A DNA stretch of 64,000 nucleotides, taken from the NCBI GenBank assembly GCA_020428645.1, contig JAGQMN010000001.1, positions 532 through 64,531 on the forward strand. Direction: 5' to 3'. Origin of the DNA: Patescibacteria group bacterium. Its GTDB lineage: Bacteria; Patescibacteriota; Minisyncoccia; Phycocordibacterales; UBA1006. The position numbers were made by a program, and so were the translations under genes. Below the pieces are notes generated by a model, which was not told where the DNA came from, did not search any database, and saw only the letters and a program-made list of their open reading frames with translations. Shown one piece after another: positions 19,041 to 63,988 of this stretch. Each line of letters opens with the position of its first letter. Positions within the stretch are counted from its first letter, which is position 1.

Positions 19041-19127
19041 GACTGCACATAGTATATCAAATCATGGTATAAAATCATGAACGCGCAGGTTGCCAGACAT
19101 GAATTCGTATGTATAATGGCGGGTATT

Positions 19128-19448
19128 ATGAGTAAATTTGCAATTATTGAAACCGGTGGGAAACAATACCGCGTTTCAGAAGGCGATGTCATAACCATCG
19201 AAAAACTTCAAGGAGACTTCAACCAAGGAGATAAAATTGTTTTCGATCAGGTGCTGATGACCGATGACGGAAAGGCAGCACAGATCGGTACCCCATACTT
19301 GGCTGGAGCAAACGTTACCGGAGAACTGCTCGAAGAAGGGCGTTCTAAAAAAGTAACCGTTATTCGTTACAAAGCAAAATCCCGATACTTCAAGAAGAAG
19401 GGACACCGACAACCGTTCATGAAGATTAAGATCACCAAACTCGCTTAA
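19128..19448 (+). CDS. rplU: Ribosomal protein L21
   Basis: MSKFAIIETGGKQYRVSEGDVITIEKL is the L21 N-terminus. Start set at the ATG at 19128. Confidence 0.85.
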   Translation: MSKFAIIETGGKQYRVSEGDVITIEKLQGDFNQGDKIVFDQVLMTDDGKAAQIGTPYLAGANVTGELLEEGRSKKVTVIRYKAKSRYFKKKGHRQPFMKIKITKLA

Positions 19449-23794: not shown

Positions 23795-25759
23795 ATGTCA
23801 AACGGGGAACAAGTCACCTACTTTGCAGAGACCGATTTTCGGAATAACCGCACGAAGTTTGGTATCAAAAACAAAGACCGTTCACGTCACGTCTACGTCA
23901 TCGGAAAGACGGGAATGGGGAAATCAACGCTCCTTGAAAATATGGCAGCGCAAGACATCCTTAATGGAGAAGGGATGTGTTTTATGGATCCCCATGGTTC
24001 AGCGATTGATACACTTCTTGAATACGTACCATCACATCGTGTGCGTGATATTGTGTACTTCGCACCTTTTGATACTGATTACCCTATTTCATTTAATGTA
24101 CTTGAAGCAGTTGAACCCGATCGACGCCACTTGGTTGTAGCTGGACTCATGGCATCGTTCAAGAAGATTTGGGTTGATGCCTGGTCTGCTCGTATGGAGT
24201 ACATTCTCTCAAACACCCTCCTTGCGCTCCTCGAATACCCGAATGCAACACTCCTTGGAGTCAATCGCATGCTCGCTGAGAAAGACTATCGCAATGATGT
24301 GATTAAACATGTGACTGATGCGTCAGTGCGTTCATTTTGGATTGATGAGTACAACAAATGGGATCCACGATACGCACGTGAAGCGGGGGCTGCTATTCAG
24401 AACAAAATCGGTCAATTTACGGCGAATCCATTGATTCGTAATATTATTGGGCAACAACACTCGTCCATCGATTTTCGAAAGATTATGGATGAGAAAAAGA
24501 TTCTCCTCGTAAACCTCTCGAAAGGACTCATTGGTGAATCCAATGGAAACCTTCTTGGGGGAATGCTCATTACCAAGTTGTTTCTTGGTGCTCTGTCGCG
24601 AGCCGATGTCGGTGCAACCAGGTTGAATCAACTCCCTGATTTCTTTTTCTTTGTGGACGAGTTTCAAAACTTTGCTAATGAATCGTTTGCTGACATTCTG
24701 TCTGAAGCACGTAAGTACAAGCTCAACCTTACGGTTGCTCATCAATACGTTGACCAAATGGAGGAATCAGTTGCATCGGCAATTTTTGGTAACGTGGGAA
24801 CGATGATCACCTTTCGTATTGGAGCAAACGATGCAGAAATCTTTGAAAAACAATTTGCTCCAACGTTTACTTCAGAAGACCTGGTGAACCTCGGTAAATT
24901 CCAGATTTACCTCTCATTGATGATTGACGGGATTGGATCTCGACCCTTTTCAGCACGCACCATTGCACCCGTTGAGCGACCACCTGTTTCTATGCGCGCG
25001 GAAATTATTCAATCATCGCGAGAACAGTTTGCACGACCACGGAAAGAAGTTGAAATGAGTATTACGGAATGGTACGAGCCAGTGAATAAACCTGAAAAAC
25101 GTACGTTTCGTAATGATGATGGGAGTATGCCAAAAGCGAATACCAACGCCACACCTTCAATATCACCCAAAAAAATTGAAAAACAGAGTTTCATTATTCC
25201 GAAGGGTGAACGAGATAATGGTTCTAGCCCTTTGAAAAAGGTCGCAAAAGAACTTGATGAAAAAGAAGCTGAACTTGAAATGAAGAAAATTGTTTCACCA
25301 AAGTTGAATAGCTTGCTTGATAAAATGGGAGGTGGTGAGGAAAAGAAAATTCTCCCAGAAGTTGTTGAAAATATACGCAAGCATGACGTAACATCAGAGC
25401 CACTTAAAAAAACAGGGAACGTTCAGACATCTGAAACAAAGATACCCGAATCGGTCACTCAACGTGCTGCCTCAGTCAATAAACAACAGCCAGCTACATC
25501 TGATCGCGGGGCAAAAGTAGATACCATGTCCTCTCTTCAAGAAGTTCTTAAAAAAGCTATGGGTGGGAAGCGTACTGTTCAAAAGCAGGTTCGCAAACAA
25601 CCGAACCAGTCTGGACCAACAATTCAACAACCTAAACAATCGAATCATGATACAACTCAACAACACAAACAAGATACAAGCACAATATCATCACCGCAAA
25701 CCAATACTGAACAAAAAAAAGAAGTACCAGAAGATGTACTTCGGGGTATTTTCAGTTAA
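23795..25759 (+). CDS. Type IV secretion coupling-protein-like ATPase (VirD4/TraD/TraG family), soluble, with a long low-complexity C-terminal tail
   Basis: Walker A HVYVIGKTGMGKST, Walker B FFFFVDEFQNF, and a downstream EARKYKLNLTVAHQYVDQ that resembles the coupling-protein ARKYG...(T/A)xQ motif. No N-terminal TM helix. The last ~230 aa are K/E/Q/T/S-rich and lack a domain I recognise. Confidence 0.55.
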   Translation: MSNGEQVTYFAETDFRNNRTKFGIKNKDRSRHVYVIGKTGMGKSTLLENMAAQDILNGEGMCFMDPHGSAIDTLLEYVPSHRVRDIVYFAPFDTDYPISFNVLEAVEPDRRHLVVAGLMASFKKIWVDAWSARMEYILSNTLLALLEYPNATLLGVNRMLAEKDYRNDVIKHVTDASVRSFWIDEYNKWDPRYAREAGAAIQNKIGQFTANPLIRNIIGQQHSSIDFRKIMDEKKILLVNLSKGLIGESNGNLLGGMLITKLFLGALSRADVGATRLNQLPDFFFFVDEFQNFANESFADILSEARKYKLNLTVAHQYVDQMEESVASAIFGNVGTMITFRIGANDAEIFEKQFAPTFTSEDLVNLGKFQIYLSLMIDGIGSRPFSARTIAPVERPPVSMRAEIIQSSREQFARPRKEVEMSITEWYEPVNKPEKRTFRNDDGSMPKANTNATPSISPKKIEKQSFIIPKGERDNGSSPLKKVAKELDEKEAELEMKKIVSPKLNSLLDKMGGGEEKKILPEVVENIRKHDVTSEPLKKTGNVQTSETKIPESVTQRAASVNKQQPATSDRGAKVDTMSSLQEVLKKAMGGKRTVQKQVRKQPNQSGPTIQQPKQSNHDTTQQHKQDTSTISSPQTNTEQKKEVPEDVLRGIFS

Positions 25760-39181: not shown

Positions 39182-39230
39182 ATCTCCCTATGAAAAACTA
39201 CATGTTAGTTTTTCATAGGGAGATTTTTTA
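39182..39230 (+). terminator. Long perfect hairpin terminator upstream of serS
   Basis: 19-bp arms atctccctatgaaaaacta/tagtttttcatagggagat with loop catgt, followed by ttttttatt. Confidence 0.5.
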
Positions 39231-39258
39231 TTGCAACTTAAGGGTTCTCATTTATACT
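39231..39258 (+). promoter_or_regulatory. Sigma-70-like promoter for serS (TTGCAA, 16 nt, TATACT)
   Basis: The -10 box ends 6 nt before the serS ATG, so the mRNA would be leaderless or nearly so. Confidence 0.35.
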
Positions 39259-39264
39259 ACGACT

Positions 39265-40533
39265 ATGTTAGACATCAAATTTATTAGAGAAAATCGCGAT
39301 ATTGTAAAACAAGCAGCGATGAAAAAACACATCACCGTTGACGTTGATAAACTCGTTGCGCTCGATAACGACCGCCTCGATCTCCTTCGTGAAATTGAGG
39401 CTCTGCGTGCTGAACAGAATGCCCAGTCGGAAAAAATTCAAAATATCGAAGGCGAGGAACGTGAAAACGCTATTATTGCGATGCGTGCATTAAAGGAGAG
39501 TCTCCAAACAAAAGAAGCTGACCATAAAAAAGTAGCAAAGAAATGGCAAGAATTAATGTGGCAGATTCCGAACATACCTGATGTATCAGTACCAGACGGG
39601 GAGAGTGACTCCGATAACATTGAGGTAAAGGTATGGGGAGAGCAAACAACGTTTGACTTTGAACCAAAAGACCACATCGAAATTATGGAAGACCTCGATA
39701 TAGTTGATCTTGAACGTGGTCAAAAGATTCATGGATTCCGTGGGTACTTTTTGAAGGGTGATGCAGTTCGATTATGTTTTGCTATTTGGCAGTACGCACT
39801 CGAATTTTTTGCTGATAAGGGATTTAATCCAATGATTGCACCAGCAATCGTACGTGAGGAAAATCTCTACGGTACTGGACACCTACCGAACGATGCTGAG
39901 GACGTCTACATAACCCAGGATAACGATTACCTCGCGGGAACCGCCGAGGTGCCAGTTATGGGGTACCACAGTGGTGAGGTATTGGATGAAGGACAATTTC
40001 CGATTAAATATTTGGCATTCTCTCCATGTTATCGTCGCGAGGTGGGGAGTCATGGTAAAGATACCAAGGGACTTATTCGTGTTCATGAATTTCAGAAATG
40101 GGAACAGGTCGTGTTGTGTGAAGCGTCACATGAACGGTCAGTAGAACTCCACGAATGGATTAACCGAAATACCGAAGAGTTCATCGAATCACTCGGCATT
40201 CCGTACCACACCGTCTTGAATTGTGGTGGTGATCTCGGACAAGGACAGGTGAAGAAGTACGACGTTGAACTGTGGGTGCCGGGTGAAGAGAAATACCGAG
40301 AGATTTCATCAGCGTCGTATTTTCACGACTTCCAGACTCGCCGGTTTAACATCCGCTACAAAGACGGCGAAGGGAAGATGCGATTTGCACACTCCTTGAA
40401 CTGTACTGCGATCCCAACACCACGAATTTTGGTGTCGTTGGTTGAGAATTTTCAGAATGCTGATGGTTCAATTAGTATTCCTGCAATACTCCAACCGTAC
40501 ATGCGTAATCAAGAGGTTATTAAAAAGAGCTAA
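39265..40533 (+). CDS. serS: Seryl-tRNA synthetase
   Basis: N-terminal coiled coil MLDIKFIREN...; class II motifs including ...FRREVGSHGKDTKGLIRVHEF... and ...RFAHSLNCTAIP... Confidence 0.9.
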   Translation: MLDIKFIRENRDIVKQAAMKKHITVDVDKLVALDNDRLDLLREIEALRAEQNAQSEKIQNIEGEERENAIIAMRALKESLQTKEADHKKVAKKWQELMWQIPNIPDVSVPDGESDSDNIEVKVWGEQTTFDFEPKDHIEIMEDLDIVDLERGQKIHGFRGYFLKGDAVRLCFAIWQYALEFFADKGFNPMIAPAIVREENLYGTGHLPNDAEDVYITQDNDYLAGTAEVPVMGYHSGEVLDEGQFPIKYLAFSPCYRREVGSHGKDTKGLIRVHEFQKWEQVVLCEASHERSVELHEWINRNTEEFIESLGIPYHTVLNCGGDLGQGQVKKYDVELWVPGEEKYREISSASYFHDFQTRRFNIRYKDGEGKMRFAHSLNCTAIPTPRILVSLVENFQNADGSISIPAILQPYMRNQEVIKKS

Positions 40534-49910: not shown

Positions 49911-49948
49911 GTGCGTAGTATAACAAGTCTTGCTATACTACGCACATG
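49908..49948. promoter_or_regulatory. Perfect 15-bp inverted repeat (CATGTGCGTAGTATA, 11 nt, TATACTACGCACATG) spanning both divergent start codons
   Basis: Read directly from the sequence. The whole 35-bp gap between the divergent cytidylyltransferase and PMM-like genes is the palindrome. Confidence 0.4.
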
Positions 49949-50710
49949 AAGAAGTACAACACGATCATTTTTGATTTGGATGGGACGTTGGCAGTGACTA
50001 AATCTCCTCTGACAGATGAAATGGGTCAATTAGTTGCTCAACTCACCCAAAAAATAAATGTGGTCATTATTACTGGTGGTCGTTTTGAACAGATTAAAAA
50101 ACAGGTTATTGATAGACTTGGTGAAAACGTTGTACGTTCAAATTTTTACGTACTCCCTACAACAGGATCAAGTATGGTTGCATATGATTCAAAAACAAAA
50201 GAATGGAATTACGTATATCGTCATGAATTAACTAACGAACAAAAAGAACGAATCATTAATGGAATTAAACAAGCTTTGGAACAAGCATCGTTTTCTATTA
50301 ATCCTGATGATGTTTTTGAAAATCAATTTGAAGATAGAGGTTCTCAAATTACATTTTCGGCTCTCGGTCAATATCAAAAACCGGAAATCAAGATTGTATG
50401 GGATCCTGAACAGAAAAAACGGCAGGAATTATTATCCTATATGAATCACTTAGAGGACGAGTTTGCGCTTAATTTAGGGGGTTCTACATCTATTGATGTA
50501 ACCTTAAAGGGAATTGATAAGGAATATGGAATTAATGAATTTTATAAAACAACAGCACTTCAAATTAAAGATGGTCTTTTTGTTGGTGATAAAATTTTTC
50601 CTGGTGGAAATGATTATCCAGCAATAAAAACAGGGATTGATTACCGTGAGACATCAGGTCCTGAAGAAACGATGGAAATTATCCACGAGGTACTTCAATC
50701 ATACGACTAA
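49946..50710 (+). CDS. HAD-IIB hydrolase, eukaryote-type phosphomannomutase (PMM)-like
   Basis: IIFDLDGTLA (DxDGT), VIITGGRFEQI and especially FVGDKIFPGGNDYPAI align with the PMM motifs LFDVDGTLT, GVVGGSD and FFGNETSPGGNDFEIF. Confidence 0.6.
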   Translation: MKKYNTIIFDLDGTLAVTKSPLTDEMGQLVAQLTQKINVVIITGGRFEQIKKQVIDRLGENVVRSNFYVLPTTGSSMVAYDSKTKEWNYVYRHELTNEQKERIINGIKQALEQASFSINPDDVFENQFEDRGSQITFSALGQYQKPEIKIVWDPEQKKRQELLSYMNHLEDEFALNLGGSTSIDVTLKGIDKEYGINEFYKTTALQIKDGLFVGDKIFPGGNDYPAIKTGIDYRETSGPEETMEIIHEVLQSYD

Positions 50711-50743
50711 GACGTGTTATTATAGAGGTATCTTGTAATTTTT

Positions 50744-51088
50744 ATGAAGGCATCGCACGTGACAAAAAAACCATGGGGAGAGTTCAGGCAGTTTACGCTC
50801 AATCAAGAGTCTACGGTAAAGACCCTATCTGTTAATCAGGGAGAAGAGCTTTCATTACAGACTCATACATCACGTGAAGAATATTGGTACGTACTCGATG
50901 GTCACCCACGAATAACACAAGGAAAAGATATCTTTGATGCAGAACCAGGTCGAGAATTTTTTATCGAGCAGGGTGAAAAACACCGTATCGCTGCACCAAT
51001 TGATGACGTTCGCATTCTAGAAATCGCCTATGGACACTTTGATGAAGATGACATCGTTCGGCTCGAAGATCGTTACGATAGATCTTAG
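50744..51088 (+). CDS. Cupin-domain protein, mannose-6-phosphate isomerase type II C-terminal-like
   Basis: KPWGEFRQF...SLQTHTSREEYWYVLDG...EKHRI fits the cupin_2 / PMI type II pattern. Confidence 0.55.
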   Translation: MKASHVTKKPWGEFRQFTLNQESTVKTLSVNQGEELSLQTHTSREEYWYVLDGHPRITQGKDIFDAEPGREFFIEQGEKHRIAAPIDDVRILEIAYGHFDEDDIVRLEDRYDRS

Positions 51089-51111
51089 CTAACAATTATA
51101 TATTTATTTAC

Positions 51112-53070
51112 ATGAAGCGTTTCCTTTCACAACTTATCGAGATATTGGTACAACCTCTTGTTCCTGCTTGGCAGAAAGAGGCGCCTTTGTCTCAGGAAGT
51201 TATTGGAACAGCACACTTCGATAATCAGCATTACTTTTTTGTTCGTGATGGCGACAAGGTTTTTCTCGTGAGTGATACAGATACCTATGTTTATCGACAG
51301 AATGTGTGTTTCTCTCGGATTATGACGAGGCACATTCCAAACATGTGTGACCTTGATGCGGTAACCTTACCAAACGGAGAGCATGCCATGGTGTGTACGG
51401 TCAAACTCAAGCGAGGGTACAAAACTGTGTATCTTACTTCACAAGACACTCGTCACTTTAAGGCGTGGTCAATGGTACGTAATCCAAACGGACATGCGAC
51501 AAAAATTATTGTTCATGCAGCTAATCAGATAGCACTTGTAACCTCAATTAATGGTGAGATTTGTTATCGCGATCTTGATGTACACAACCGAAATGTTGAA
51601 TACCACACAACACCGCTTGTACCACGACACGATTCGTTTGATCATAGTCCACTGCGTGTAGTTGGTGTATTTGATCTACCTGACGGGGTGTTTGTGCTCT
51701 ACGATACATCGTACGAAATGCGTGGGTTCGTGACTCACCGGTTTGGCGCGGCACTTCTTGCCCACGGAAACCTTGGTCACTGTCACTGGCGAGCGTACTT
51801 TGATGAGGTGCCATTCTGGGATTATTTTGTTTCTAAAAAAGAAAACGAACACCTCTCACTCTCTGCTATTAGTGCGTACCACCGTGGAGATACCATTCAT
51901 GTCTACTTTTATGACTGCCTGAACCGAGATGTGTATACGCTCGATCTTCACGAACCGTACTCACGTCGTGATCCACATCCCGACAAGGCAATCTTGCGAA
52001 AGTATGTACACAATCCAATTTTGAAACCAAATGAAGACCACGCCTGGGAATGTTACGCGACATTCAATCCAACCGCACTTCAGATTGGTAACACAACACA
52101 TCTCCTCTACCGGGCTGAAGGTTCAGCAGGTCTTTCGGTGATTGGCTATGGCTCCAGCTATAATGGGGTTACCTTTGATCGTTTACCTGATCCAATATAT
52201 GTTCCAACGATGGACTTCGAGGGAGTGAACTTGTCGCCTGACATGATACGATTATTGCGAAAACGTTCGACTAGTTTTAAATCCGGATATAACCACTATC
52301 CAACTGATTACCATGGATACCGTTGGCACGGTGTTGAGGATCCACGTATGACCGAGATGGAAGGTCGAATCTACATGATTTATTCCGCGTATAATGGCTA
52401 CCAGATGGCGCGACCTGCAATTACCTCAATTGATACAAACGATTTTCTGAATCACCGCTGGAACTGGGCGGTTCCACAGGTGATGACCGAACAGGCGTAT
52501 GCATGGGGGCAGGGGAATAAGAACGTCGTTCTTCACCCGGAAAAGGTAAATGGTAAGTATGTAATTTTCCACCGCATATGGCCACACATCCGGATCGATT
52601 ACGTTGATAATCTCGAATTTGGTCCTGGTAAAAAGTACCTCAAAGAGCTTGCACGCATCGAGGCTCGTGGGGATTCGTGGGATAGTAACCGCGTTGGTGT
52701 TTCTTCCGCTCCTATTTTGATTGATGAGGGGTGGCTGATGATTTACCAAGGATCGGGTTCGCAAGATCGTCGCTATAAAGTTGGTGCTATGATTCTCGAT
52801 CGATATGATCCATCAAAGGTACTGTACCGCAGTGGACAACCAATCCTTGCACCAACTGAATGGTACGAAAACGACAACAAATCCGGCGTTGCGTACCCTT
52901 GTGGAGCGGTTGTTCGAGATGGTACTCTGTACGTGTACTACGGAGCATCAGACAAGTACGTATCGGTAGCAACGGCACCTCTTCGTGAATTTATTGATAA
53001 GCTCAAACATGATGCGTACCAAAAACCAGAACTTACCAAAAGAATCGGTATCGACGACCTATGTATATAA
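51112..53070 (+). CDS. GH130-family glycoside hydrolase/phosphorylase domain protein with a ~290-aa N-terminal extension
   Basis: The C-terminal half carries NPILKPNEDHAWECYATFNPTA and GVEDPRMTEMEGRIYMIYSAYNG, the GH130 beta-mannoside-phosphorylase catalytic-Asp region. The N-terminal 290 aa are unassigned. Confidence 0.7.
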   Translation: MKRFLSQLIEILVQPLVPAWQKEAPLSQEVIGTAHFDNQHYFFVRDGDKVFLVSDTDTYVYRQNVCFSRIMTRHIPNMCDLDAVTLPNGEHAMVCTVKLKRGYKTVYLTSQDTRHFKAWSMVRNPNGHATKIIVHAANQIALVTSINGEICYRDLDVHNRNVEYHTTPLVPRHDSFDHSPLRVVGVFDLPDGVFVLYDTSYEMRGFVTHRFGAALLAHGNLGHCHWRAYFDEVPFWDYFVSKKENEHLSLSAISAYHRGDTIHVYFYDCLNRDVYTLDLHEPYSRRDPHPDKAILRKYVHNPILKPNEDHAWECYATFNPTALQIGNTTHLLYRAEGSAGLSVIGYGSSYNGVTFDRLPDPIYVPTMDFEGVNLSPDMIRLLRKRSTSFKSGYNHYPTDYHGYRWHGVEDPRMTEMEGRIYMIYSAYNGYQMARPAITSIDTNDFLNHRWNWAVPQVMTEQAYAWGQGNKNVVLHPEKVNGKYVIFHRIWPHIRIDYVDNLEFGPGKKYLKELARIEARGDSWDSNRVGVSSAPILIDEGWLMIYQGSGSQDRRYKVGAMILDRYDPSKVLYRSGQPILAPTEWYENDNKSGVAYPCGAVVRDGTLYVYYGASDKYVSVATAPLREFIDKLKHDAYQKPELTKRIGIDDLCI

Positions 53071-55007
53071 CCAGACGATCAGATCACAACCCGTTTATCA
53101 GACCGAACGAAGAAAAGCACTGGATGTCCTACGCAACCTTCAACTGGTCACCATGGCACGATGAAGAAACACATACTATTCATGCGTTATACCGTGCTAT
53201 GACGAAACCTGACCTCCTCGCATCAGGTCCGTCTTTTAGTGTGTCTTCAATTGGTTATACCTATAGTAACGATGAGGAACACTTCACTCACCACGAACAG
53301 TTTATTTTTTCAGAGGAAGAGTGGGAACGGTATGGGTGCGAAGATCCACGTGTGACGAAAATCGGTGATACCTACTACATTTTCTACACAGCACTCTCAA
53401 CCTATCCTTTTTCAGCTGAGGGTATTAAAGTTGCTGTTGCAACTACCAAGGATTTCAAAACGATTGACGAAAAAAAATTAGTAACTCCATTCAACGCAAA
53501 GGCGATGACACTCTTTCCAGAGAAAATAAATGGCAAATTTACTGCGCTCCTTACCGTTGATCCCGATAAACCACCGTCAAAGATTGCATTCATCCAGTTT
53601 GATTCTGAAGAACAAATCTGGGATCAGGGCTACTGGCATAATTGGTATGCGAACATCGACGACCATATCTTTGATCCACGAAAACGTGATGACGATCATT
53701 GTGAGATTGGTGCTGCACCGGTGTGGACTGATGAGGGATGGCTTCTTGTGTATTCACATATTCAGCACTATTTTAATGAATCTGAGCGAGTATTTGGTAT
53801 AGAAGCGCTGCTTCTCGACCACGATGACCCAAAAAAGATTCTTGGTAGGACAACTGGGCCCATCCTTGTCCCAGAGAAAACCTATGAAAAAGAAGGTCAG
53901 GTACACAACATTACGTTTCCATCAGGTGCGCTGCTTCATGGTGATCGTCTCGACATCTACTATGGTGGAGCAGATTCAGTATGTTGTATGGCAACTGTCA
54001 ATCTACACCATCTCTTGGACAGTATGAATATAGAGAAACGTAAAGAGCACATTGTTCGCTACGCCGGTAACCCAATTTTGGAGCCAATTCGTGAGAACGA
54101 ATGGGAAGCAAAACTGGTCTTCAATCCAACCACCGTCGATATCGGTGAAAAAACCTATATTGTGTACCGTGCTATGTCACAGGACAACACCTCGTACATG
54201 GGAGCTGCGGTGACTACCGATGGCTACACCATTGATGAACGTTTTTCTGAACCAATCTACGTTCCACGTATGGATTTCGAGATGAAGAAATCACATCCAA
54301 CAGGGAACTCTGGATGTGAGGACGGTCGTGCAACGGTCATCGGCGACACCCTCTACATGTTTTACACCGCGTACAATGGGGTGGATGCTCCCAGGGTTGC
54401 TTTTTCATCAATTTCATTGAACCATTTCGAGGCAAAGAACTGGAATGCATGGTCAGAACCACAGCTGGTAACGCCAGATGGAATAGATGACAAAGATGCC
54501 TGCCTCCTCGCTGAAAAAATTAGAGACGAGTACGCGATCTTTCACCGCATCAAACACCATGTGTGTTTTGACACGGTACCTGAACTCGATTTTTCAAAAC
54601 ATCGATTGAATAAGTGTATTCCATTAATTGGCCCACGAACTGGGATGTGGGACGGACTGAAGGTTGGTATTGCTGGTCCCCCTATTAAGACTGATGCAGG
54701 ATGGTTACTGTTGTACCACGCAGTATCAACTGATAAATACTATCGCGTTGGCGCGATGTTGATGGAGCTCGATAATCCAGGTAACATCATCGGACGTACG
54801 ACTGATTTCATTCTCGAACCCGAAGAACGGTGGGAACTTGAGGGTGAGATCAACAAAGTTGTCTTCCCGTGTGGTGCCTCGATTCGTGGTGATGAACTCT
54901 TTATCTACTACGGTGGAGCCGATACCGTGGTTGGGGTAGCAACGACAAAGCTCTCATGGCTACTTGACGTATTGACCTGGCAACGTGATTCAGACAATTG
55001 GTCGTAA
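53061..55007 (+). CDS. Tandem double GH130-domain protein
   Basis: Domain 1 has NPFIRPNEEKHWMSYATFN...GCEDPRVTKIGDTYYIFYTA. Domain 2 starts at about nt 54,033 with NPILEPIRENEWEAKLVFNPT...GCEDGRATVIGDTLYMFYTAYNG. The gene overlaps the upstream GH130 gene by 10 nt. Confidence 0.7.
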   Translation: MYITRRSDHNPFIRPNEEKHWMSYATFNWSPWHDEETHTIHALYRAMTKPDLLASGPSFSVSSIGYTYSNDEEHFTHHEQFIFSEEEWERYGCEDPRVTKIGDTYYIFYTALSTYPFSAEGIKVAVATTKDFKTIDEKKLVTPFNAKAMTLFPEKINGKFTALLTVDPDKPPSKIAFIQFDSEEQIWDQGYWHNWYANIDDHIFDPRKRDDDHCEIGAAPVWTDEGWLLVYSHIQHYFNESERVFGIEALLLDHDDPKKILGRTTGPILVPEKTYEKEGQVHNITFPSGALLHGDRLDIYYGGADSVCCMATVNLHHLLDSMNIEKRKEHIVRYAGNPILEPIRENEWEAKLVFNPTTVDIGEKTYIVYRAMSQDNTSYMGAAVTTDGYTIDERFSEPIYVPRMDFEMKKSHPTGNSGCEDGRATVIGDTLYMFYTAYNGVDAPRVAFSSISLNHFEAKNWNAWSEPQLVTPDGIDDKDACLLAEKIRDEYAIFHRIKHHVCFDTVPELDFSKHRLNKCIPLIGPRTGMWDGLKVGIAGPPIKTDAGWLLLYHAVSTDKYYRVGAMLMELDNPGNIIGRTTDFILEPEERWELEGEINKVVFPCGASIRGDELFIYYGGADTVVGVATTKLSWLLDVLTWQRDSDNWS

Positions 55008-55051
55008 ACAAAAGAACTTCTTTAGCGAAGTTCTTTTGTTATACTTAGGGT

Positions 55052-55417
55052 ATGAAGATATTTGTAACACACTCTAGCGATATTAATGTACATGAAGATT
55101 TGTATCAACCAATCAGAGAATCAGAATTGAATAAAAAACACGACATTAAGTTACCACAAGAGTTTGGTAAAGAAACAATTACCAAAGAACTCATTCAATC
55201 TCAAGATTTTATTATTGCCGAATCCTCAATGCCTTCGACCGGTTCAGGTATTGAATTAGGTTGGGCTGATATGTACAACGTACCGATACTCAATGTATAT
55301 AAAAAGAATAGTAAATCTTCATCTTCACTACGGTACGTAACTGATAATCATATTGAATACATAGATAGCAAAGACATGGTTAATAAAATTACAGATTTTA
55401 TTGATAACCAAGTATGA
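55052..55417 (+). CDS. Nucleoside 2-deoxyribosyltransferase-like small Rossmann protein
   Basis: STGSGIELGWA resembles the GTxxExGxA motif of the nucleoside deoxyribosyltransferase-like family. Support is weak. Confidence 0.35.
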   Translation: MKIFVTHSSDINVHEDLYQPIRESELNKKHDIKLPQEFGKETITKELIQSQDFIIAESSMPSTGSGIELGWADMYNVPILNVYKKNSKSSSSLRYVTDNHIEYIDSKDMVNKITDFIDNQV

Positions 55418-56127
55418 GTAAAAAATTAATTGCTATACAAAAAACTCAACGAGCTGTTGAAATGGCGATGCAGGCAGTCATTGATTACCTAAAGACTCAC
55501 CCTACACCAACATCAGAACGAGCTCATGAAATCATTGATGAAGTGCTCACCGAACATGGTTGCGAATCACCTGAGAGGCACATTGTTACTTCTGGAATCC
55601 AGTCCCACGAACCACACGAAGAGGGAACAGGTTTGATCGAACAAGGGGTACCGATTGTGATTGATATTTACCCTCGATCCACAGAGTCGGGTTACTTTGC
55701 CGACATGACACGGACGGTGTGTATTGGAACATCACCATTTGAACTACAGCGTATGTACGGTACCGTGCTCGAAGCACAGAATATGGCGATCAGTATGCTT
55801 GCACCAGGTGTTCGTTGTAGTGATGTACATAATGTTGTTGCAGAATTTTTTATCAATCAAGGCTACGAAACCAACGGAAAGGGTAGCGAGTTCACCTATG
55901 CTGAGGGTTTTGTGCATGCGCTCGGTCACGGGGTATCTACAAAGATCCATGACAAACCAACACTTAGCCCAAAGAGTGAAGATATTTTACAAGAAGGCGA
56001 CGTAATCACCATTGAACCTGGGCTATATTACAAACACATTGGCGGTATCCGCATCGAGGATATGTTCGTGATTACCGAAACTGGTGTTGAACGAATCACC
56101 CAATTTCCTCACCTTTTTCAAATTTAA
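55414..56127 (+). CDS. M24-family metallopeptidase catalytic domain (Xaa-Pro / methionine aminopeptidase-like pita-bread fold)
   Basis: Metal-ligand pattern D (FADMTRT), H (HALGHG), E (ITIEPG), E (IRIEDM). Only the catalytic domain is present. Its start overlaps the upstream stop. Confidence 0.7.
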   Translation: MSKKLIAIQKTQRAVEMAMQAVIDYLKTHPTPTSERAHEIIDEVLTEHGCESPERHIVTSGIQSHEPHEEGTGLIEQGVPIVIDIYPRSTESGYFADMTRTVCIGTSPFELQRMYGTVLEAQNMAISMLAPGVRCSDVHNVVAEFFINQGYETNGKGSEFTYAEGFVHALGHGVSTKIHDKPTLSPKSEDILQEGDVITIEPGLYYKHIGGIRIEDMFVITETGVERITQFPHLFQI

Positions 56128-56158: not shown

Positions 56159-59100
56159 ATGAACTACATCAAAAAATTTCGTGAACTGACAAAAAAAGAC
56201 GCTGATATCGCAGGAGGAAAGGGTGCCTCCCTTGGAGAAATGCTCAATGCTGGAATTCCCGTTCCTGATGGATTTGTGGTGACTGCCGATACTTTTGATT
56301 TCTTTCTTGCTGAAACTGATCTCGTTCAGGAAATTGGTGCTATTTTGAAAAAAGTGGATACCCAGGCAATTCACACTGTTGATGATGCATCTGAACAAAT
56401 TCAAAATCTGATTCGCAGTGCACAGATGCCTGAATCTGTGGCTTCTGAAATCCTCAAAGATTTTGATGAACTTGATACGGCTTACGTTGCAGTTCGTTCT
56501 TCGGCAACTGCCGAAGACGGTGCTGATCATGCATGGGCAGGGCAACTTGATTCGTACCTCAACACAACGAAAGATATGCTCCTCGAAAAAGTTCAGTCGT
56601 GTTGGGCATCACTGTTTACTCCACGGGCGATCTTTTACCGGTTTGAAAAAGGTCTTCACACCACTCACATCTCTGTTGCGGTGGTAATCCAGAAAATGGT
56701 GAACTCTGAAAAATCAGGGATTGCTTTTTCAGTGCATCCAGTGACTGAAGATTACAATCAGATGATTATCGAGGCAGGTCTTGGACTCGGCGAGGCTATT
56801 GTTTCTGGTTCGGTTACCCCCGATTCCTACGTAGTTACCAAAGACCCACAGGAAATTATCGATAGCAACGTTAATACTCAAACCAAGGCACTGTACCGTA
56901 CTGCCACAAAGGGTGACCACGGTTTCAACGAATGGAGAGAACTATCTGAAACCGAAGCTAATCAGCAGGTACTTGATAACACACAGATCATCGAGTTAGC
57001 AAACATTATTGAACGTATCGAAAATCACTACGGATTCCCATGTGATATTGAATGGGCGTATGAAAACAATACCTTCTTTATTGTCCAATCTCGACCAATT
57101 ACAACGCTATCGAATAAAACGGTAGACCTAAAAAAAAACGATAGTGTAGCAAAACTTACCTTTGAACGAGAGTATACACGGGATTTTTCAATAATTCTCG
57201 AAGATTTTTGGCATCACGGATTAATGAGTTGTTATCGTGATATTCTTCAATCTGAACCTCTACATGAAACCCCCCTCGTTACATATATACATGATGGTGT
57301 TGTTGAAACATGGCAAAATCGTCCATTCATCAATGATCTAAAGAAAAAAATTCTTGAACGTAATATTGCTGATCCATCTTTTCTTAATCCTATTATGGCG
57401 GACTATCGTGTTTTACTTGATACCTTTAAACAGTATCGGGCACAGAAAAAATTTGCACAATCACACAAAGATATTAAAGAACTCTTGGCGCAGTTTAAAG
57501 AGGGAATTCGTCTATGGATTCCGTGGGGGCATGCAGCCTATGTAGAAGAAACACCAAAAGATATTTGGGATAAAACTATGGCGCTTCGTGATATTGATAC
57601 ATTTTGGGATGATGCTGATTACGTATTACGGAAGAGTATTATTAATGTTTACCCGGAGCTTGAAGGGTGTGAGAATACTATCCTTGCGGAAGAGCTGTTA
57701 ACCGGTTCTGACAGCTTTGACAATAACCAGTACACAAAACGTCTCTCTGGGTATGTTCATATTCCTGGTCGGTCACACTGGTTTGGTGACTTAGCAAGCG
57801 CTGAAGAAAAGTACAGAGATCTACAATTTAACTACCCGACGAATGAGATTGTAAACAATGGTTTCAAAGGCGAAATCGCATATGCTGGTAATCAAGAAGT
57901 CATTACTGGTAAGGTTCGTATTATCAAGAGAAAAGACCAAGTACGTACATTACAAGATGGTGAGGTATTAGTCTCGCCAATGACAACACCCGACTTTGAA
58001 CCAGCAATGAAGCGTGCGGTAATCACTATTACCGATGAAGGTGGGATCACTTGTCATGCGGCAGTTGTTGCCAGAGAGATGAAGTTACCATGTATTACTG
58101 GAACCCGAATTGCTACTAGTTTTTTGAATGATGATGACACCGTTTCAGTAAATACAAAAACAGGAGTTGTGACTCGTATTGCATCTAAATTTCCTAATGG
58201 CGAATGTTTTAAAAACATGTCGACTCCAGATGCATGGAACTACACAGGGAAGTGGATTCAAAATCCACTATGTTCAAGTTTTTGGGCTGCGTATCACCAA
58301 ACTGATATTGTTCAGAAAATTTATCCTGATCGAGAATTTGGTATTGAGTTCAGCGTTGATGGTCACTGGCGAGAGAACCTTGTTGATATCACATATATGA
58401 AATCAGAAATCATCAGAAGATATCAAGATGGTAGTCTAGATAAATTTGTTCAAAATTTCGATTCGGTAGGTAATGAGATTCAAAATGTACTCTTAAAAGA
58501 GATTAATGAAATTAGTATTAATACATTACCACTTCAAGAGATCTTTGCTTGCTATCAAGATTTGTTCACTTATTGGGGTTTTCTAACATTCTTAGGTGAC
58601 TTAACCATGCCAGTTGCAAACGAGGTAAATCTTGTTTCCTCTGATGGTGAATTTTTCGAGATGACTCATCCTCATCTTCGTCTAACCTGGATTGAATATG
58701 AAGAAGAAAAAACACGTGAAATCGCTCAAGAAGTAATTAATTTAGGTGCAGGTGTTTGTAATATCGAACTCATAAAGAAAAATAAAACTATTTCAAAGCT
58801 TGTCAAAGAATATTTTGAAAATTTTGCGTGGGTTGGTGTTAACAAATGGGAAGGAGAGGGAATGAACGATGAGAAATTAGTTGAACGAGTAAATCAGGCA
58901 ATTGAAAACATTAAAGAAGGAAACTTTTTTGAATCTCGTTCTCCTAATGAATCTATTTTTAAAGAACTTAATCCACTCGTGCAACTTGGTGTATCTACTG
59001 CGTATTGGCGTGCGACCTGTGCTAGTTTAGCAGCTCGCTTTGAGTATCTGATACAAGAGCGAATGAGTAAGTTGGCAAAGAAACATAAGATTACTTACAA

Positions 59101-62100
59101 TGATATTATTTATCTTAGTAAGCACGAGGTTCTTATCCTTGAAAATGAGGGAACCTTACTTGTTCCAGTAAAAGATATACAAGAACGTAAAGAAGGTTTT
59201 GCGTGTTTTGTTGATGTTGAAGGTACACTCAATGTCGTGTCAGGTAATAATAGGGTGTATCAAAAACTCAAAAAGCTCTATGGTAGTGCACCAAAGTTAG
59301 AGTTTAATAAAAGTTTTATTGAGGGAATGCCAGCATGCAAAGGTTTTGCTGAAGGGCGAGTTACAATTGTTTCCAGTAAAGATGATTTCCATAAGTTTCA
59401 AAAAGGGAATATTCTAGTCTCCGAAGAAACAACACCTGCTTTCGTACCTTTAATGAGACAAGCGTCAGCAATTGTAACTGATCGTGGAGGTATCACCTCG
59501 CATGCTGCTATTGTTTCTAGGGAACTTGGTAAACCTTGCATTATTGCTACTAAAAACGCTACTCAAATTTTAAAAGATGGAGATTTGGTTGAGGTGGATG
59601 CTGATAACGGAATTGTGCGTATCATCGAAACATCCCAAAAAAAAACTCAAAATGAGGTAGAACAAGATATTGTTGATAAGGTTGCTAAACAAAAATATCA
59701 TTATATTCACAAACGTTATCGCACTCCATTCTATATGGAACTCATGTGGAAAGGCGCAAGTGTTTCTTGTAAAGATTCAAAAATCCCTTTTGATTATTTA
59801 GTTGAGGGTCTTTATCTTGATACAGAGATTGGGTTTGAAGATAGGGATTGGAATAATGCTAAAAAGATTACTTGGGAATTTACACATCAAAATCCTAAAT
59901 TGTTTTTAAAGATGATTGAAGATGCGTACTCAATCCAAACATCTATTCGTAAATCAATAAAAAAAATTACTCAAGATATTGACAAGGTTAATAAACAAGA
60001 TGTCGTTAGGTTTTGGCAAGAATATGCAAGACGTATGCACGCATTTGGACAGTATCTTCTTCCTCCGTTATTTATCGAATCGATTCTAGAGGAACGTATA
60101 CAAAAAGCAATTACACAAGTATTATCAAAACATGATTTCAATGAAGTGTTTCGGATTTTAACAACCCCTATGAAATTAGGAACTGCTGTTTTAGAAGAAC
60201 TGTCAATTCTTGATATTGCAATTGCAGAAAAGAATAAAAAACCCGTAGATGGTTTAATAGAAAAACATTTAGAAGATTTTGGTTGGACGAAAAATAATTC
60301 TCATGATGGGAAATTTAATACCATCAATGATATTGAAGACAGTGTTCAAAAAGTTTTGAGTGAAAGCGATCCATCAATTTTAAAACAACACATTGAAGAA
60401 GATATTGCTCACACCAAAGAGAAATTTGATTCATATTTCTCCATGTTTGACAAAGAGACGCAAAGTCTCATTGAAATATTACAAGAATCTATTTATTATC
60501 GTAGCTGGCGTACTGAACGTTACTATAAAAATGCATATTATTTAGATTCACTATTCCGTAAAACCGCAGAGATTTTAAACATGCAAATGTATTCTGATAT
60601 TTTCTTTTTAACGATTGATGAAATAATTTCACTACTCAAGGGCAAGAGTTTTGATTTCAAAGATCTTATACAAAATCGCAAATTAGGTTATGCAGTTTAT
60701 GCTACTGAAACAGGCACACACGTTTTTCAAGGCGAGGATGTATTGAAAATGAAAGAATCTGTAAAATTTTTTGATGAATCCCAACAGACAGATGTCATTA
60801 TCGGACAACAAGCATATCCAGGTGTCGTATCGGGCAGAGCCCGTGTTATTTTGGACAAGAAAAACTTGGATAGAGTTCAAGAAGGAGATATTCTTATTAC
60901 TCCAGCCACAACAGTTGATTATGTTCCTACATTAAAAAAAGTGAAAGCCATTGTAACCGATGAGGGTGGTGTACTTTGCCATGCGTCTGTTATTTCGCGG
61001 GAATTACGCATACCGTGTATCATTGGTACGAAAAATGGTTCCAAGATTATTCAAGATAATAGTGTAGTTGAAGTTGATGCCAATACAGGAACAGTACATA
61101 TTCTTGACAAAGAGCAAAAAGAAAATACGCACATAAATTTTGACCTCAACCAAGAACCGTTGGTGTGGGGTCCTGTTGGCATGAACTCTATACTATCGTT
61201 TACTACTTGGGTACCTGGCTTATACAATGGTTTTTCAAAACAATTTCCAGGATATTCGTGGCCGAAACTACTCGCACTGTTTAAGGAATATTTCTTTGCA
61301 TGGATTCACGAGTTGCAAGATATTGAAAAACATGGAGCTGATGTTTTTGTGGATCTCATGATGAATCCAAAGGTACGAGAACAAGCACGCAGTGAATGGG
61401 AACAATCAAAGGACCGTTTACGTGATGTTGAAGAGATACTTGAACAGCACAATCTTACTCAGCTTAGTGGTGACGAGTACTTGAACCTATGGCGCCAAAT
61501 GGAAACAGCCATTACAGATTTTTGGGTGTGGTCGAGTTTGCCTGAACTTGCTAACTATGGATCAATCAATGTTTTGAAAGAGCGCTTAAAAAACAACGTA
61601 CCTAAAGACAATATAATGTCGGTATTAGAAATACTCACCGCACCCGAAGATATTTCGTTTTTTCAACAAGAGGAAATTGACCTTGCACGGACTCATGATC
61701 TTGAGGCACATCAGCAGAACTACTTTTGGTTAAACAACAGCTACGCACACATTGAGGTTACACCTGTTTCATTTTTTGAAAAACGAAAAGCAGTGTTATC
61801 ACCAAGCATTGAAACTGAAATAGCCGAACGCATGGCGTCAGTCAAAGAAGCTAAACAGAATGTCCAAAAACAATATAATCTCTCGGACGAAATTATGGAG
61901 ATGGCGTACCGTATTACTGATGGAATTATTTGGCAGGATAAACGAAAGAAAGAGGTATGGGTATATCTCCACTACGAGGAGCAAATGTTCCATGAAGCGG
62001 CACGACGAACCAATACAGATGTACAAGACGTAAAGTTACTTCTTTTTGAAGAATTTGAGCCTTTTATTAAGGGTGAGATTAATATCGATGATATTAAAAA

Positions 62101-63988
62101 CCGGACTGATGGTTTCCTGGTATACATTGATGAACACCAAAACATGAAAACTTATGGTTCTAATATTGCGAACTACTACTGGAATCACTACTTTCCTTCG
62201 GAAAAAGATCTCAGTATTACCTCTTTGAAAGGTACTGTTGCGAGTAAAGCCGAATCCGGCAATGTACAAGGTAGTGTAAGAATTATTCTCGATGCGACAA
62301 AGTGCAAAGATTTTTGTCCTGGTGATGTTTTAGTGACTACGATGACAACACCCGAATTTGTATTTCTTATGAAACAAGCGTCAGCGATTGTGACTGACAC
62401 TGGAGGATTGACCTCACACGCTGCGATTGTTGCGCGTGAGCTTGGTAAACCATGTATTATCAATACGAAATCAGCGACCCGTGCGCTAGAAGATGGTGAC
62501 TTGATTGAAGTTAATACTGATGTAGGTGAGGTTACTATTATAGAACGATCGAATACCTCACATTCGCTCCCCATTAATCCACATGACTACAAATTTATTG
62601 GGCTTTGGAAGGAAGATTTGTTTCCAGCATACTTTTGGGCTCGGTGGTTTGATGTAAAGAAAAATAATAAACTTGGATTTACAGAAATCACTAATAGTGG
62701 AGCACTTATTTTGAAAGGTGGGAACTTTTTTTGGAGTCATCAAATGCGAGATCAAATGAAAGCACTCCTTGATCGAGTTGTTGAAACAAAAGATACCTCA
62801 CTGTTTAAGAATTTATACAAACAAGCTAATAAATGTTTTAGGGACACAATGAAAAAGGCCGACACATTGGCAAAAGAAGAACCAGATACTGAAAATTTTG
62901 AAACATTCATTCAATTAGGTCGTGACCTCATGTATTATTGGACCTTTGGCGCTTCAATGGCAGAGTTTGTTGATGAGTATATTATCGAGCATGCATCCAG
63001 AGAACATATTAAACCTTCTGATGTAGTTGGGTATGTAGACATACCAGAGACTGAACTTATGCGTCAGCAGTCGGCACTTCGTGAATTTCATCAGGAATTT
63101 AAAAAACGAGGTTGGCTTGATAGAATCGATGGTGATCGAGAATCACTTATTCATGATATTCAACAAGATAAGAAACTCTACAAAAAATTAGAGAAACATA
63201 TGTATGAGTATGGCTGGATTGAAATGTTGAACTATGTTGGTGACGTTATAACCTTTGATAGATTCCTTACCATTATTGGAGGTGTTGGAGAAGAGCAGAA
63301 ACCCCAAGAAAAGAAAAAAGTTTCAGATACATTTAATTTTATTCTTAATATCGCTTCCTACATTGGTTACGCACGTCAAGCTGGAGCGGAGTATTCTTCA
63401 GTGTTTTCCTATAAACTACATGACTACTTAAAAGCTACAGCAGAAAAAATAAATGTATCTTACTCAGAAATGTTAAACCTGACACCGGAAGAAATTATAC
63501 TTGCACTCTCAAATAACTTAGATCCACAGCCACTACTACAACGACGAGCAAATAGAAATTGGTTAGTGTGGTGGGACAAACATCAACATGCACAGGTTGT
63601 AGATGATTCAGATATTATCAATAAATTGTACGAGAAAATGGTTCCTATTATAGAGGATGATCAACGTCAACTTGTTGGTCAAACTGGTAATAAGGGTAAG
63701 GTTGTTGGAAAAGTGAGTGTAATTATGGCCACCGAGGATTTTGGAGCATTCAAAGAGGGTAACATTTTAGTCACTACTATGACGACACCAGATTTCGTAG
63801 TCTTAATGCAAAAAGCATCGGCAATCGTGACTGATATCGGAGGTTTACTGTCCCATGCATCAATTGTCTCACGCGAACTTGGTAAACCTTGTGTTATTGG
63901 TACAAAATTTGCTACTCAAATACTCAAAGATGGTGATATGGTTGAAGTTGATGCGGATAACGGAGTTGTTAAGATTCTAGAAAAATAA
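56159..63988 (+). CDS. Giant PEP-synthase/rifampin-phosphotransferase-like protein (2609 aa): one N-terminal PPDK_N-type ATP-binding domain plus five tandem phosphohistidine swivel modules
   Basis: N-terminus DIAGGKGASLGEMLNAGIPVPDGFVVT...AVRSSATAEDG is the PPDK_N/PEP-synthase nucleotide-binding domain (about aa 1-315). There are five copies of the mobile-domain motif GG(I/L/V)(T/L)(S/C)HA(A/S)(I/V)V(S/A)RE(L/M)...P, with His codons at 58055, 59501, 60980, 62417 and 63854, each preceded by a ~390-aa spacer domain. There are no internal stops and no PEP/pyruvate TIM-barrel motifs. Confidence 0.75.
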   Translation: MNYIKKFRELTKKDADIAGGKGASLGEMLNAGIPVPDGFVVTADTFDFFLAETDLVQEIGAILKKVDTQAIHTVDDASEQIQNLIRSAQMPESVASEILKDFDELDTAYVAVRSSATAEDGADHAWAGQLDSYLNTTKDMLLEKVQSCWASLFTPRAIFYRFEKGLHTTHISVAVVIQKMVNSEKSGIAFSVHPVTEDYNQMIIEAGLGLGEAIVSGSVTPDSYVVTKDPQEIIDSNVNTQTKALYRTATKGDHGFNEWRELSETEANQQVLDNTQIIELANIIERIENHYGFPCDIEWAYENNTFFIVQSRPITTLSNKTVDLKKNDSVAKLTFEREYTRDFSIILEDFWHHGLMSCYRDILQSEPLHETPLVTYIHDGVVETWQNRPFINDLKKKILERNIADPSFLNPIMADYRVLLDTFKQYRAQKKFAQSHKDIKELLAQFKEGIRLWIPWGHAAYVEETPKDIWDKTMALRDIDTFWDDADYVLRKSIINVYPELEGCENTILAEELLTGSDSFDNNQYTKRLSGYVHIPGRSHWFGDLASAEEKYRDLQFNYPTNEIVNNGFKGEIAYAGNQEVITGKVRIIKRKDQVRTLQDGEVLVSPMTTPDFEPAMKRAVITITDEGGITCHAAVVAREMKLPCITGTRIATSFLNDDDTVSVNTKTGVVTRIASKFPNGECFKNMSTPDAWNYTGKWIQNPLCSSFWAAYHQTDIVQKIYPDREFGIEFSVDGHWRENLVDITYMKSEIIRRYQDGSLDKFVQNFDSVGNEIQNVLLKEINEISINTLPLQEIFACYQDLFTYWGFLTFLGDLTMPVANEVNLVSSDGEFFEMTHPHLRLTWIEYEEEKTREIAQEVINLGAGVCNIELIKKNKTISKLVKEYFENFAWVGVNKWEGEGMNDEKLVERVNQAIENIKEGNFFESRSPNESIFKELNPLVQLGVSTAYWRATCASLAARFEYLIQERMSKLAKKHKITYNDIIYLSKHEVLILENEGTLLVPVKDIQERKEGFACFVDVEGTLNVVSGNNRVYQKLKKLYGSAPKLEFNKSFIEGMPACKGFAEGRVTIVSSKDDFHKFQKGNILVSEETTPAFVPLMRQASAIVTDRGGITSHAAIVSRELGKPCIIATKNATQILKDGDLVEVDADNGIVRIIETSQKKTQNEVEQDIVDKVAKQKYHYIHKRYRTPFYMELMWKGASVSCKDSKIPFDYLVEGLYLDTEIGFEDRDWNNAKKITWEFTHQNPKLFLKMIEDAYSIQTSIRKSIKKITQDIDKVNKQDVVRFWQEYARRMHAFGQYLLPPLFIESILEERIQKAITQVLSKHDFNEVFRILTTPMKLGTAVLEELSILDIAIAEKNKKPVDGLIEKHLEDFGWTKNNSHDGKFNTINDIEDSVQKVLSESDPSILKQHIEEDIAHTKEKFDSYFSMFDKETQSLIEILQESIYYRSWRTERYYKNAYYLDSLFRKTAEILNMQMYSDIFFLTIDEIISLLKGKSFDFKDLIQNRKLGYAVYATETGTHVFQGEDVLKMKESVKFFDESQQTDVIIGQQAYPGVVSGRARVILDKKNLDRVQEGDILITPATTVDYVPTLKKVKAIVTDEGGVLCHASVISRELRIPCIIGTKNGSKIIQDNSVVEVDANTGTVHILDKEQKENTHINFDLNQEPLVWGPVGMNSILSFTTWVPGLYNGFSKQFPGYSWPKLLALFKEYFFAWIHELQDIEKHGADVFVDLMMNPKVREQARSEWEQSKDRLRDVEEILEQHNLTQLSGDEYLNLWRQMETAITDFWVWSSLPELANYGSINVLKERLKNNVPKDNIMSVLEILTAPEDISFFQQEEIDLARTHDLEAHQQNYFWLNNSYAHIEVTPVSFFEKRKAVLSPSIETEIAERMASVKEAKQNVQKQYNLSDEIMEMAYRITDGIIWQDKRKKEVWVYLHYEEQMFHEAARRTNTDVQDVKLLLFEEFEPFIKGEINIDDIKNRTDGFLVYIDEHQNMKTYGSNIANYYWNHYFPSEKDLSITSLKGTVASKAESGNVQGSVRIILDATKCKDFCPGDVLVTTMTTPEFVFLMKQASAIVTDTGGLTSHAAIVARELGKPCIINTKSATRALEDGDLIEVNTDVGEVTIIERSNTSHSLPINPHDYKFIGLWKEDLFPAYFWARWFDVKKNNKLGFTEITNSGALILKGGNFFWSHQMRDQMKALLDRVVETKDTSLFKNLYKQANKCFRDTMKKADTLAKEEPDTENFETFIQLGRDLMYYWTFGASMAEFVDEYIIEHASREHIKPSDVVGYVDIPETELMRQQSALREFHQEFKKRGWLDRIDGDRESLIHDIQQDKKLYKKLEKHMYEYGWIEMLNYVGDVITFDRFLTIIGGVGEEQKPQEKKKVSDTFNFILNIASYIGYARQAGAEYSSVFSYKLHDYLKATAEKINVSYSEMLNLTPEEIILALSNNLDPQPLLQRRANRNWLVWWDKHQHAQVVDDSDIINKLYEKMVPIIEDDQRQLVGQTGNKGKVVGKVSVIMATEDFGAFKEGNILVTTMTTPDFVVLMQKASAIVTDIGGLLSHASIVSRELGKPCVIGTKFATQILKDGDMVEVDADNGVVKILEK

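Follow-up and report, generated by a model that had tools for sequence, protein, structure and literature searches.

A single open reading frame (ORF) of 7.8 kb encodes a 2609-amino-acid (aa) protein in which one ATP-grasp head is followed by five modules, each comprising an acceptor domain (the spacer) and a swivel domain carrying the catalytic histidine of its family. The ORF lies at 56159..63988 on the forward strand of the window, by which we mean the whole 64,000-nucleotide (nt) stretch analyzed, from an uncultured Patescibacteria group bacterium (GTDB lineage Patescibacteriota; Minisyncoccia; Phycocordibacterales; UBA1006; assembly GCA_020428645.1, contig JAGQMN010000001.1). We consider that the protein is probably a cytoplasmic, fused multi-acceptor dikinase of the superfamily that includes rifampin phosphotransferase (RPH), HpeHI and PpsAB, in which the one head loads all five swivels. 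An earlier note on this DNA had put forward a multi-acceptor dikinase, and that remains the best reading. Parts and chemistry are those of a known superfamily. What is new as a described system is the one-to-many wiring, the range from split to fused forms, and the spread through DPANN archaea and bacteria of the candidate phyla radiation (CPR), among them the present one.

The ORF begins with ATG and has 2609 codons plus a stop codon, and its translation contains no in-frame stop over 7827 nt, confirming that it is uninterrupted. A Pfam search, as the earlier note had proposed, bears out the count of one head and five swivels. PPDK_N (PF01326) matches once, at residues 16-324 (E = 3.5e-98), and PEP-utilizers matches five stretches (E = 3.6e-118 in all). 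The family Epimerase_2 also reaches 50.3 bits on the protein, with no single stretch passing. The head occupies 56159..57133 (residues 1-325, on the forward strand like all the features below) and contains the motifs GGKGASLGEM (K21) and VRSSATAEDG (R113). The acceptor domain of module 1 (57134..57889, residues 326-577) is mostly helical, has no Pfam family and is of a short class, with 252 aa. It is followed by swivel 1 (57890..58183, residues 578-675) with His633, codon 58055, in the motif GGITCHAAVVAREM. The acceptor domains of modules 2-5 are of a long class, with 380-396 aa. In module 2 the acceptor domain (58184..59335, residues 676-1059) precedes swivel 2 (59336..59629, residues 1060-1157; His1115, codon 59501), and in module 3 the acceptor domain (59630..60817, residues 1158-1553) precedes swivel 3 (60818..61111, residues 1554-1651; His1608, codon 60980). 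Module 4 comprises an acceptor domain at 61112..62254 (residues 1652-2032) and swivel 4 at 62255..62548 (residues 2033-2130; His2087, codon 62417). The acceptor domain of module 5 (62549..63688, residues 2131-2510) is helical and resembles the rifampin (RIF)-binding domain of RPH, and the protein ends with swivel 5 (63689..63985, residues 2511-2609; His2566, codon 63854).

The catalytic histidine is thus present in all five swivels, at exactly the five codons first listed from the sequence. The distances from histidine to histidine are 482, 493, 479 and 479 aa, in agreement with the regular period of about 485 aa that had been noted. The accompanying spacer length of about 390 aa holds for four of the five, the first being shorter. 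Self-alignment had been suggested as a way of showing this periodicity; self-BLAST of the whole protein returned the identity match alone, and the repeat was borne out when the protein was compared module by module. No signal peptide or transmembrane segment was found in the protein. A Pfam search of the five spacers at E ≤ 1 gave nothing significant, including no carbohydrate-binding module, and the PADLOC defense models gave no match.

Could so long an ORF be an artifact, either a mis-assembled tandem repeat or a set of adjacent genes joined through sequencing errors? Related genomes carry the same parts as separate genes. Moreover, the full protein has no record in the protein collection, and neither the 3' end nor the junction of modules 2 and 3 was matched when metagenome contigs were scanned for exact identity. 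Against this, pairwise identity among the five modules is 20-25% for the spacers and 37-65% for the swivels, and the sole repeat at the DNA level is a 205-nt swivel core with 63-74% identity. These are too divergent for collapse or mis-joining in the assembly to be possible. The linkers between modules are short and hydrophilic, and lack gaps of the kind that would hold a start codon or a ribosome-binding site. The 5' junction of the gene with the upstream M24 peptidase gene recurs in four short contigs assembled independently from other samples. Lastly, more than 100 independent assemblies encode the same kind of layout, with one head (three also having extra head fragments) and two to nine modules in proteins of up to 4275 aa. 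The layout of the ORF is not an assembly artifact, an explanation to which we give very little credence.

The relatives examined were the best 120 database matches to the 2609-aa protein, which come from CPR bacteria and DPANN archaea. The earlier note knew of no such architecture and suggested a search for homologs with at least two swivels. All 120 have one head and between two and nine swivel modules (three of them with extra head fragments) in 1447-4275 aa, so the layout has precedents, none of them characterized. There are three swivels in 75 relatives, four in 23 and five in 11, the maximum being nine. The bacterial sources are Parcubacteria, Magasanikbacteria, Moranbacteria, Falkowbacteria and metagenome-assembled genomes (MAGs) labeled Saccharibacteria; the archaeal sources are Woesearchaeota, Nanoarchaeota and Ca. 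Ainarchaeum. Three relatives (P0103, P0109 and P0113) have tryptophan at conserved glycine positions, for example GW or WW within GGxxxH, the signature of UGA that is read as glycine (code 25) being translated as tryptophan. This indicates that the family reaches lineages of the Gracilibacteria/Absconditabacteria type. Spacer lengths among the relatives fall into two classes, of approximately 240-280 and 360-420 aa. In 118 relatives the histidine is kept in 423 of 423 swivels; every module appears to be under selection.

These sequences are already public as phosphoenolpyruvate (PEP) synthase or PEP-utilizing enzyme, the former being the name given to relatives by both JGI and NCBI. If the automatic annotation were correct the protein would be a genuine PEP synthase (pyruvate, water dikinase), and its summed NCBIfam scores do exceed the curated cut-offs (886.8 against 598 for NF005057, and 830.4 against 739.75 for TIGR01418). 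However, it is only the addition of five swivel matches that takes the protein past those cut-offs. Taken one by one, the modules match the PEP synthase profiles no further than about position 461 of 798 (NF005057), and the match of the head spans positions 5-347. Pfam finds no PEP/pyruvate-binding triose-phosphate isomerase (TIM) barrel (PF02896) in the protein, and without that barrel it is not a PEP synthase; this is the least probable of the explanations that we have weighed. The same summing of repeated swivel matches leads annotation pipelines to misname such proteins, and a gluconeogenic step may consequently be inferred wrongly when the metabolism of CPR and DPANN organisms is reconstructed from their genomes.

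The residues expected of an RPH-like enzyme can be traced in part. In the head, K21 and R113 are invariant among the relatives and probably correspond to Lys22 and Arg117 of RPH, judged by their position in homologous motifs. In RPH these two residues are needed for the first transfer (PMC4844700). In the spacer of module 1, R341 and R477 are invariant and R528 is nearly so (in A2). A comparison of the spacers with RPH had been proposed, and it revealed homology to the region of the RIF-binding domain: the module profile aligns to RPH 631-866 with E = 1e-23, a stretch that includes the helix with R666, E667 and K670, which hold the transferred phosphate (PMC4844700). Modules 2-5 align with the part of the RPH/PRK06241-group profiles of NCBIfam that begins near position 640 and extends to their C-terminal end. 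In a low-identity alignment the R666 column is occupied by arginine in modules 1, 3 and 5, with arginine one residue later in module 2, and R477-D478 of module 1 aligns with R666-E667. This correspondence to the arginine and acid of the RPH site is suggestive only. An AlphaFold2 model of module 5 has a pLDDT of 92, and the spacer has a single structural relative, a domain that binds small molecules. The model of residues 1-676, comprising the head and module 1, has a pTM of 0.53 and is therefore uninformative on domain packing.

By analogy with RPH, HpeHI and PpsAB, the head would bind ATP and its β-phosphate would pass to a swivel histidine, with release of AMP and Pi. The loaded swivel would then return to its own module's acceptor domain, where it would phosphorylate the bound small molecule. 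One head would serve all five swivels in turn, within a chain or between chains, and the protein would hold five dikinase activities with different acceptor specificities. The likeliest acceptors would be small molecules bearing a hydroxyl or phenol group, either derived from the host or produced by it. The most plausible role would be the scavenging or trapping of host-derived small molecules, or their inactivation.

A number of observations weigh against this interpretation. In the low-identity alignment the R666 column in module 4 is glutamine, and the acidic partner of the catalytic arginine (E667 in RPH) is kept in module 1 alone. Sequence similarity of the acceptor domains to RPH is limited to their C-terminal third, with none detectable between the N-terminal two thirds and the RIF-binding domain. 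The link between the short spacer class of module 1 and the long class is weak (hhalign probability 34%). Swivels up to 2000 residues from the head would have to reach the ATP site. Within proteins the sets of modules show no diversity beyond that of a random draw, and for this reason we make no claim of complementary activities. Finally, we infer by analogy the use of ATP, the phosphorylation of the histidines and the acceptors, and equally the rule that one head serves all and the small-molecule nature of what is phosphorylated.

Might a single module, for example module 1, be the one working enzyme? The remaining swivels would then be regulators, phosphate buffers or members of a swivel-to-swivel phosphorelay. 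Module 1 best matches the arginine-acid pair of RPH (R477-D478), and the head and module 1 are conserved as a unit with 41-56% identity in many relatives. Swivel-type domains do pass phosphate to proteins, as from enzyme I to HPr in the phosphotransferase system. Yet each swivel has its own full-size, RPH-like acceptor domain, and its histidine is kept without exception. Stand-alone modules, and proteins with a head and one module, carry long-class spacers like those of modules 2-5, while the order of modules is not conserved and so is unfit for an ordered relay. We therefore regard a single working module as improbable, and continue to favor a dikinase in which all five modules are active.

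The head and the modules are in many cases encoded by separate genes, packed closely together, in 21 related genome loci. Ten of these loci carry at least three modules, with a single head in each. In one locus (L007) five module genes follow a gene that joins a head to one module, and in another (L010) four follow a gene with a head and two modules. A third (L011) has a lone head of 331 aa alongside seven module genes, and two more (L012 and L018) combine a lone head with several module genes. Locus L008 opens with a lone head of 318 aa that is 66% identical to the head of the window protein, and it also contains a lone 471-aa gene (L008:12963-14378) to which module 4 is 40% identical over 465 aa, i.e. 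over the whole module. In L026:8308-13605 one gene separates a lone module of 480 aa from a lone head of 321 aa. The sole locus with two heads (L020:10001-15060, in a MAG labeled Chlamydiae) has two tandem genes for a head plus one module, of 826 and approximately 818 aa. A spacer profile of the module 5 type was run against 1.84 billion cluster representatives, and matched 1215 proteins with E ≤ 1e-3 and 180 with E ≤ 1e-30. The best 150 matches are mostly stand-alone proteins of approximately 450-490 aa that start directly with the spacer, others being a head plus one module in approximately 800 aa, and longer chains are fewer. On these sequences the fused and split forms are equivalent.

The modules behave as independent units of evolution. 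Of 419 spacers, 412 have their nearest relative in another protein, often at another position in the chain. Module 5 is closest to the first modules of other proteins, module 4 to the seventh module of P0001, and module 3 to the second module of P0011 (36% identity). Since the nearest relatives of the spacers are found elsewhere, the five modules are old paralogs brought together, and not recent internal duplications. For 184 of the 419 modules the spacer and the swivel point to one and the same nearest relative, showing that a module moves as a whole. No meaning was detected in the order of the five modules. Two further ideas were rejected. Concerted evolution of the swivels within a protein, as an adaptation to a shared head, is not seen; the nearest relative lies in the same protein for 11 of 423 swivels alone. 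Avoidance of same-subfamily spacers within one protein is equally lacking, with 74 same-cluster pairs observed against 60.8 ± 7.1 when shuffled, and at a stricter threshold 19 against 20.2 ± 4.3. It is possible, though we put it forward tentatively, that modules freely swapped, fused and split, and shared by two domains of life, give each organism its own set of ATP-driven small-molecule kinases, with which host metabolites would be trapped or compounds made by the host neutralized. If so, such arrays would be a core tool of the episymbiotic lifestyle and not a curiosity.

A different acceptor could be imagined for the same chemistry, i.e. a macromolecule such as a glycan, a cell-envelope polymer or a protein. 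This includes a mannoside or glucan dikinase acting with the adjacent genes for GH130 enzymes, phosphomannomutase and mannose-6-phosphate isomerase, a role close to one of the possibilities raised in the earlier note. The dikinase gene does follow, in the same direction, genes for a haloacid dehalogenase (HAD)/phosphomannomutase-like protein, a cupin-type mannose-6-phosphate isomerase and two GH130 phosphorylases, and glucan-water dikinases show that action on a polymer is possible for this class of enzyme. But a methionine-aminopeptidase-type M24 peptidase gene and a 121-aa ORF separate the GH130 genes from the dikinase ORF. CPR genomes are packed with co-directional genes, and adjacency to mannoside genes alone consequently means little. 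Homologs of the window genes at 49946-56127 are near the dikinase in none of the 21 related loci. The spacers contain no carbohydrate-binding module or other Pfam domain, the order with the head first is that of RPH and opposite to that of glucan-water dikinase, and the sole structural relative of the spacer binds a small molecule. The mannoside role is not sustained by these comparisons, and macromolecular acceptors in general seem unlikely to us, although a shade less so than a single working module. Small molecules remain the preferred acceptors.

The two GH130 (β-1,4-mannooligosaccharide phosphorylase) ORFs are adjacent, at 51112-53070 and 53061-55007, and encode approximately 650 aa each. 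The GH130 domain is mainly C-terminal, with best stretches at residues 406-632 and 350-638 and a second GH130 stretch in each, and no other Pfam family was found in the N-terminal parts. Elsewhere in the window an ORF for seryl-tRNA synthetase (39190-40533, 447 aa) starts approximately 25 codons upstream of a 422-aa database protein of a Patescibacteria group bacterium, which has 100% identity to it, so its true start is probably internal. The next relatives have 82-85% identity and include proteins named Paceibacteria or Pacebacteria. The window ends 12 nt past the stop codon of the dikinase ORF, so that genes downstream of it are unseen.

Recurring neighbors among the 21 loci amount to lineage-specific synteny in Magasanikbacteria alone. 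In seven Magasanikbacteria loci (L012-L016, L019 and L021) the dikinase cluster is preceded, at approximately 2.5 kb or less, by a gene for a TrwB/TraG-like type IV coupling ATPase. Its homolog in the window (23795-25759) is 30 kb from the dikinase ORF, and the association is probably synteny of the lineage. Neighbors of phospho-metabolism or resistance type in related clusters are single cases. In L002:12039-15800 the module genes are interleaved with genes for a His_Phos_1 histidine-phosphatase-like protein, an APH-family kinase and a Bro-N/AbiJ-like protein. The separated module and head of L026 have a setting reminiscent of resistance or efflux, with genes alongside for a TrmB-type regulator, a GNAT acetyltransferase, an MMPL protein and a MacB/FtsX ABC transporter. 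ORFs that are similar in size and carry an RH motif, with no Pfam match, occur at L002:14952-15800, L003:17670-18497, and L005:8848-9681 and 18568-19413.

Full-text literature searches turned up no description or study of proteins or gene clusters with one head and several swivel modules. Work on PEP-utilizing and RPH-class enzymes has concerned a single head, swivel and acceptor site, and the present proteins raise the question of how a single ATP site serves many mobile phosphate carriers. They point to a large set of uncharacterized kinase specificities, one type of spacer alone accounting for the 1215 cluster representatives. Very small genomes nevertheless devote 8-13 kb to such proteins.

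How does the protein compare with known phosphohistidine enzymes? PEP synthase and pyruvate phosphate dikinase share the ATP-grasp head and the swivel, the latter being the part most similar in sequence (PDB 8a8e, E = 8e-44). However, they have a PEP/pyruvate TIM barrel and a single central swivel, whereas the 2609-aa protein has no such barrel and its swivels come after acceptor domains. Glucan-water dikinase (GWD/PWD) uses the same phosphohistidine dikinase chemistry. GWD carries carbohydrate-binding modules at its N terminus and its nucleotide-binding domain at the C terminus. The 2609-aa protein has neither feature, since no carbohydrate-binding module was found and its head is N-terminal.

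Among the closest known enzymes is RPH (PDB 5HV1 and 5FBS; NCBIfam PRK06241 group, to which the prodigiosin ligases PigC and RedH also belong). The 2609-aa protein shares with RPH the type of ATP-grasp head and a helical acceptor domain, a homolog of the RIF-binding domain, that precedes a C-terminal swivel bearing the catalytic histidine. The swivel of RPH shuttles between its two active sites (PMC4844700). RPH has one acceptor module per chain, in contrast to five modules and five swivels here, and the 2609-aa protein scores 592 bits against the RPH equivalog NF041857, the cut-off of which is 999. RPH is the fused, one-to-one version of a head and acceptor unit.

The key comparison is with the two-component small-molecule dikinases HpeHI of Rhodococcus, the phenylphosphate synthase PpsAB of Thauera and Aromatoleum, and CreHI of Corynebacterium. 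It is the separate head and module genes, which the earlier note had missed, that tie the 2609-aa protein to these enzymes. HpeH, comprising an acceptor domain and a swivel, and HpeI, an ATP-grasp protein, act in trans with AMP as product and an essential histidine (PMC12167813). HpeI phosphorylates the swivel histidine of HpeH without forming a stable complex, and HpeH then phosphorylates the phenolic substrate (PMC12167813). In these systems there is one head per acceptor unit, the substrates are phenolic compounds and the setting is aromatic catabolism. Here one head is joined to five fused units, a number that rises to nine in relatives, and these proteins occur in CPR and DPANN organisms, whose genomes are small. 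A module has approximately 470 aa, compared with 71 kDa for HpeH. The division into head and acceptor genes seen in HpeHI, PpsAB and CreHI is replaced by fusion in the window, while it is found again in seven of the related loci (L007, L008, L010, L011, L012, L018 and L026).

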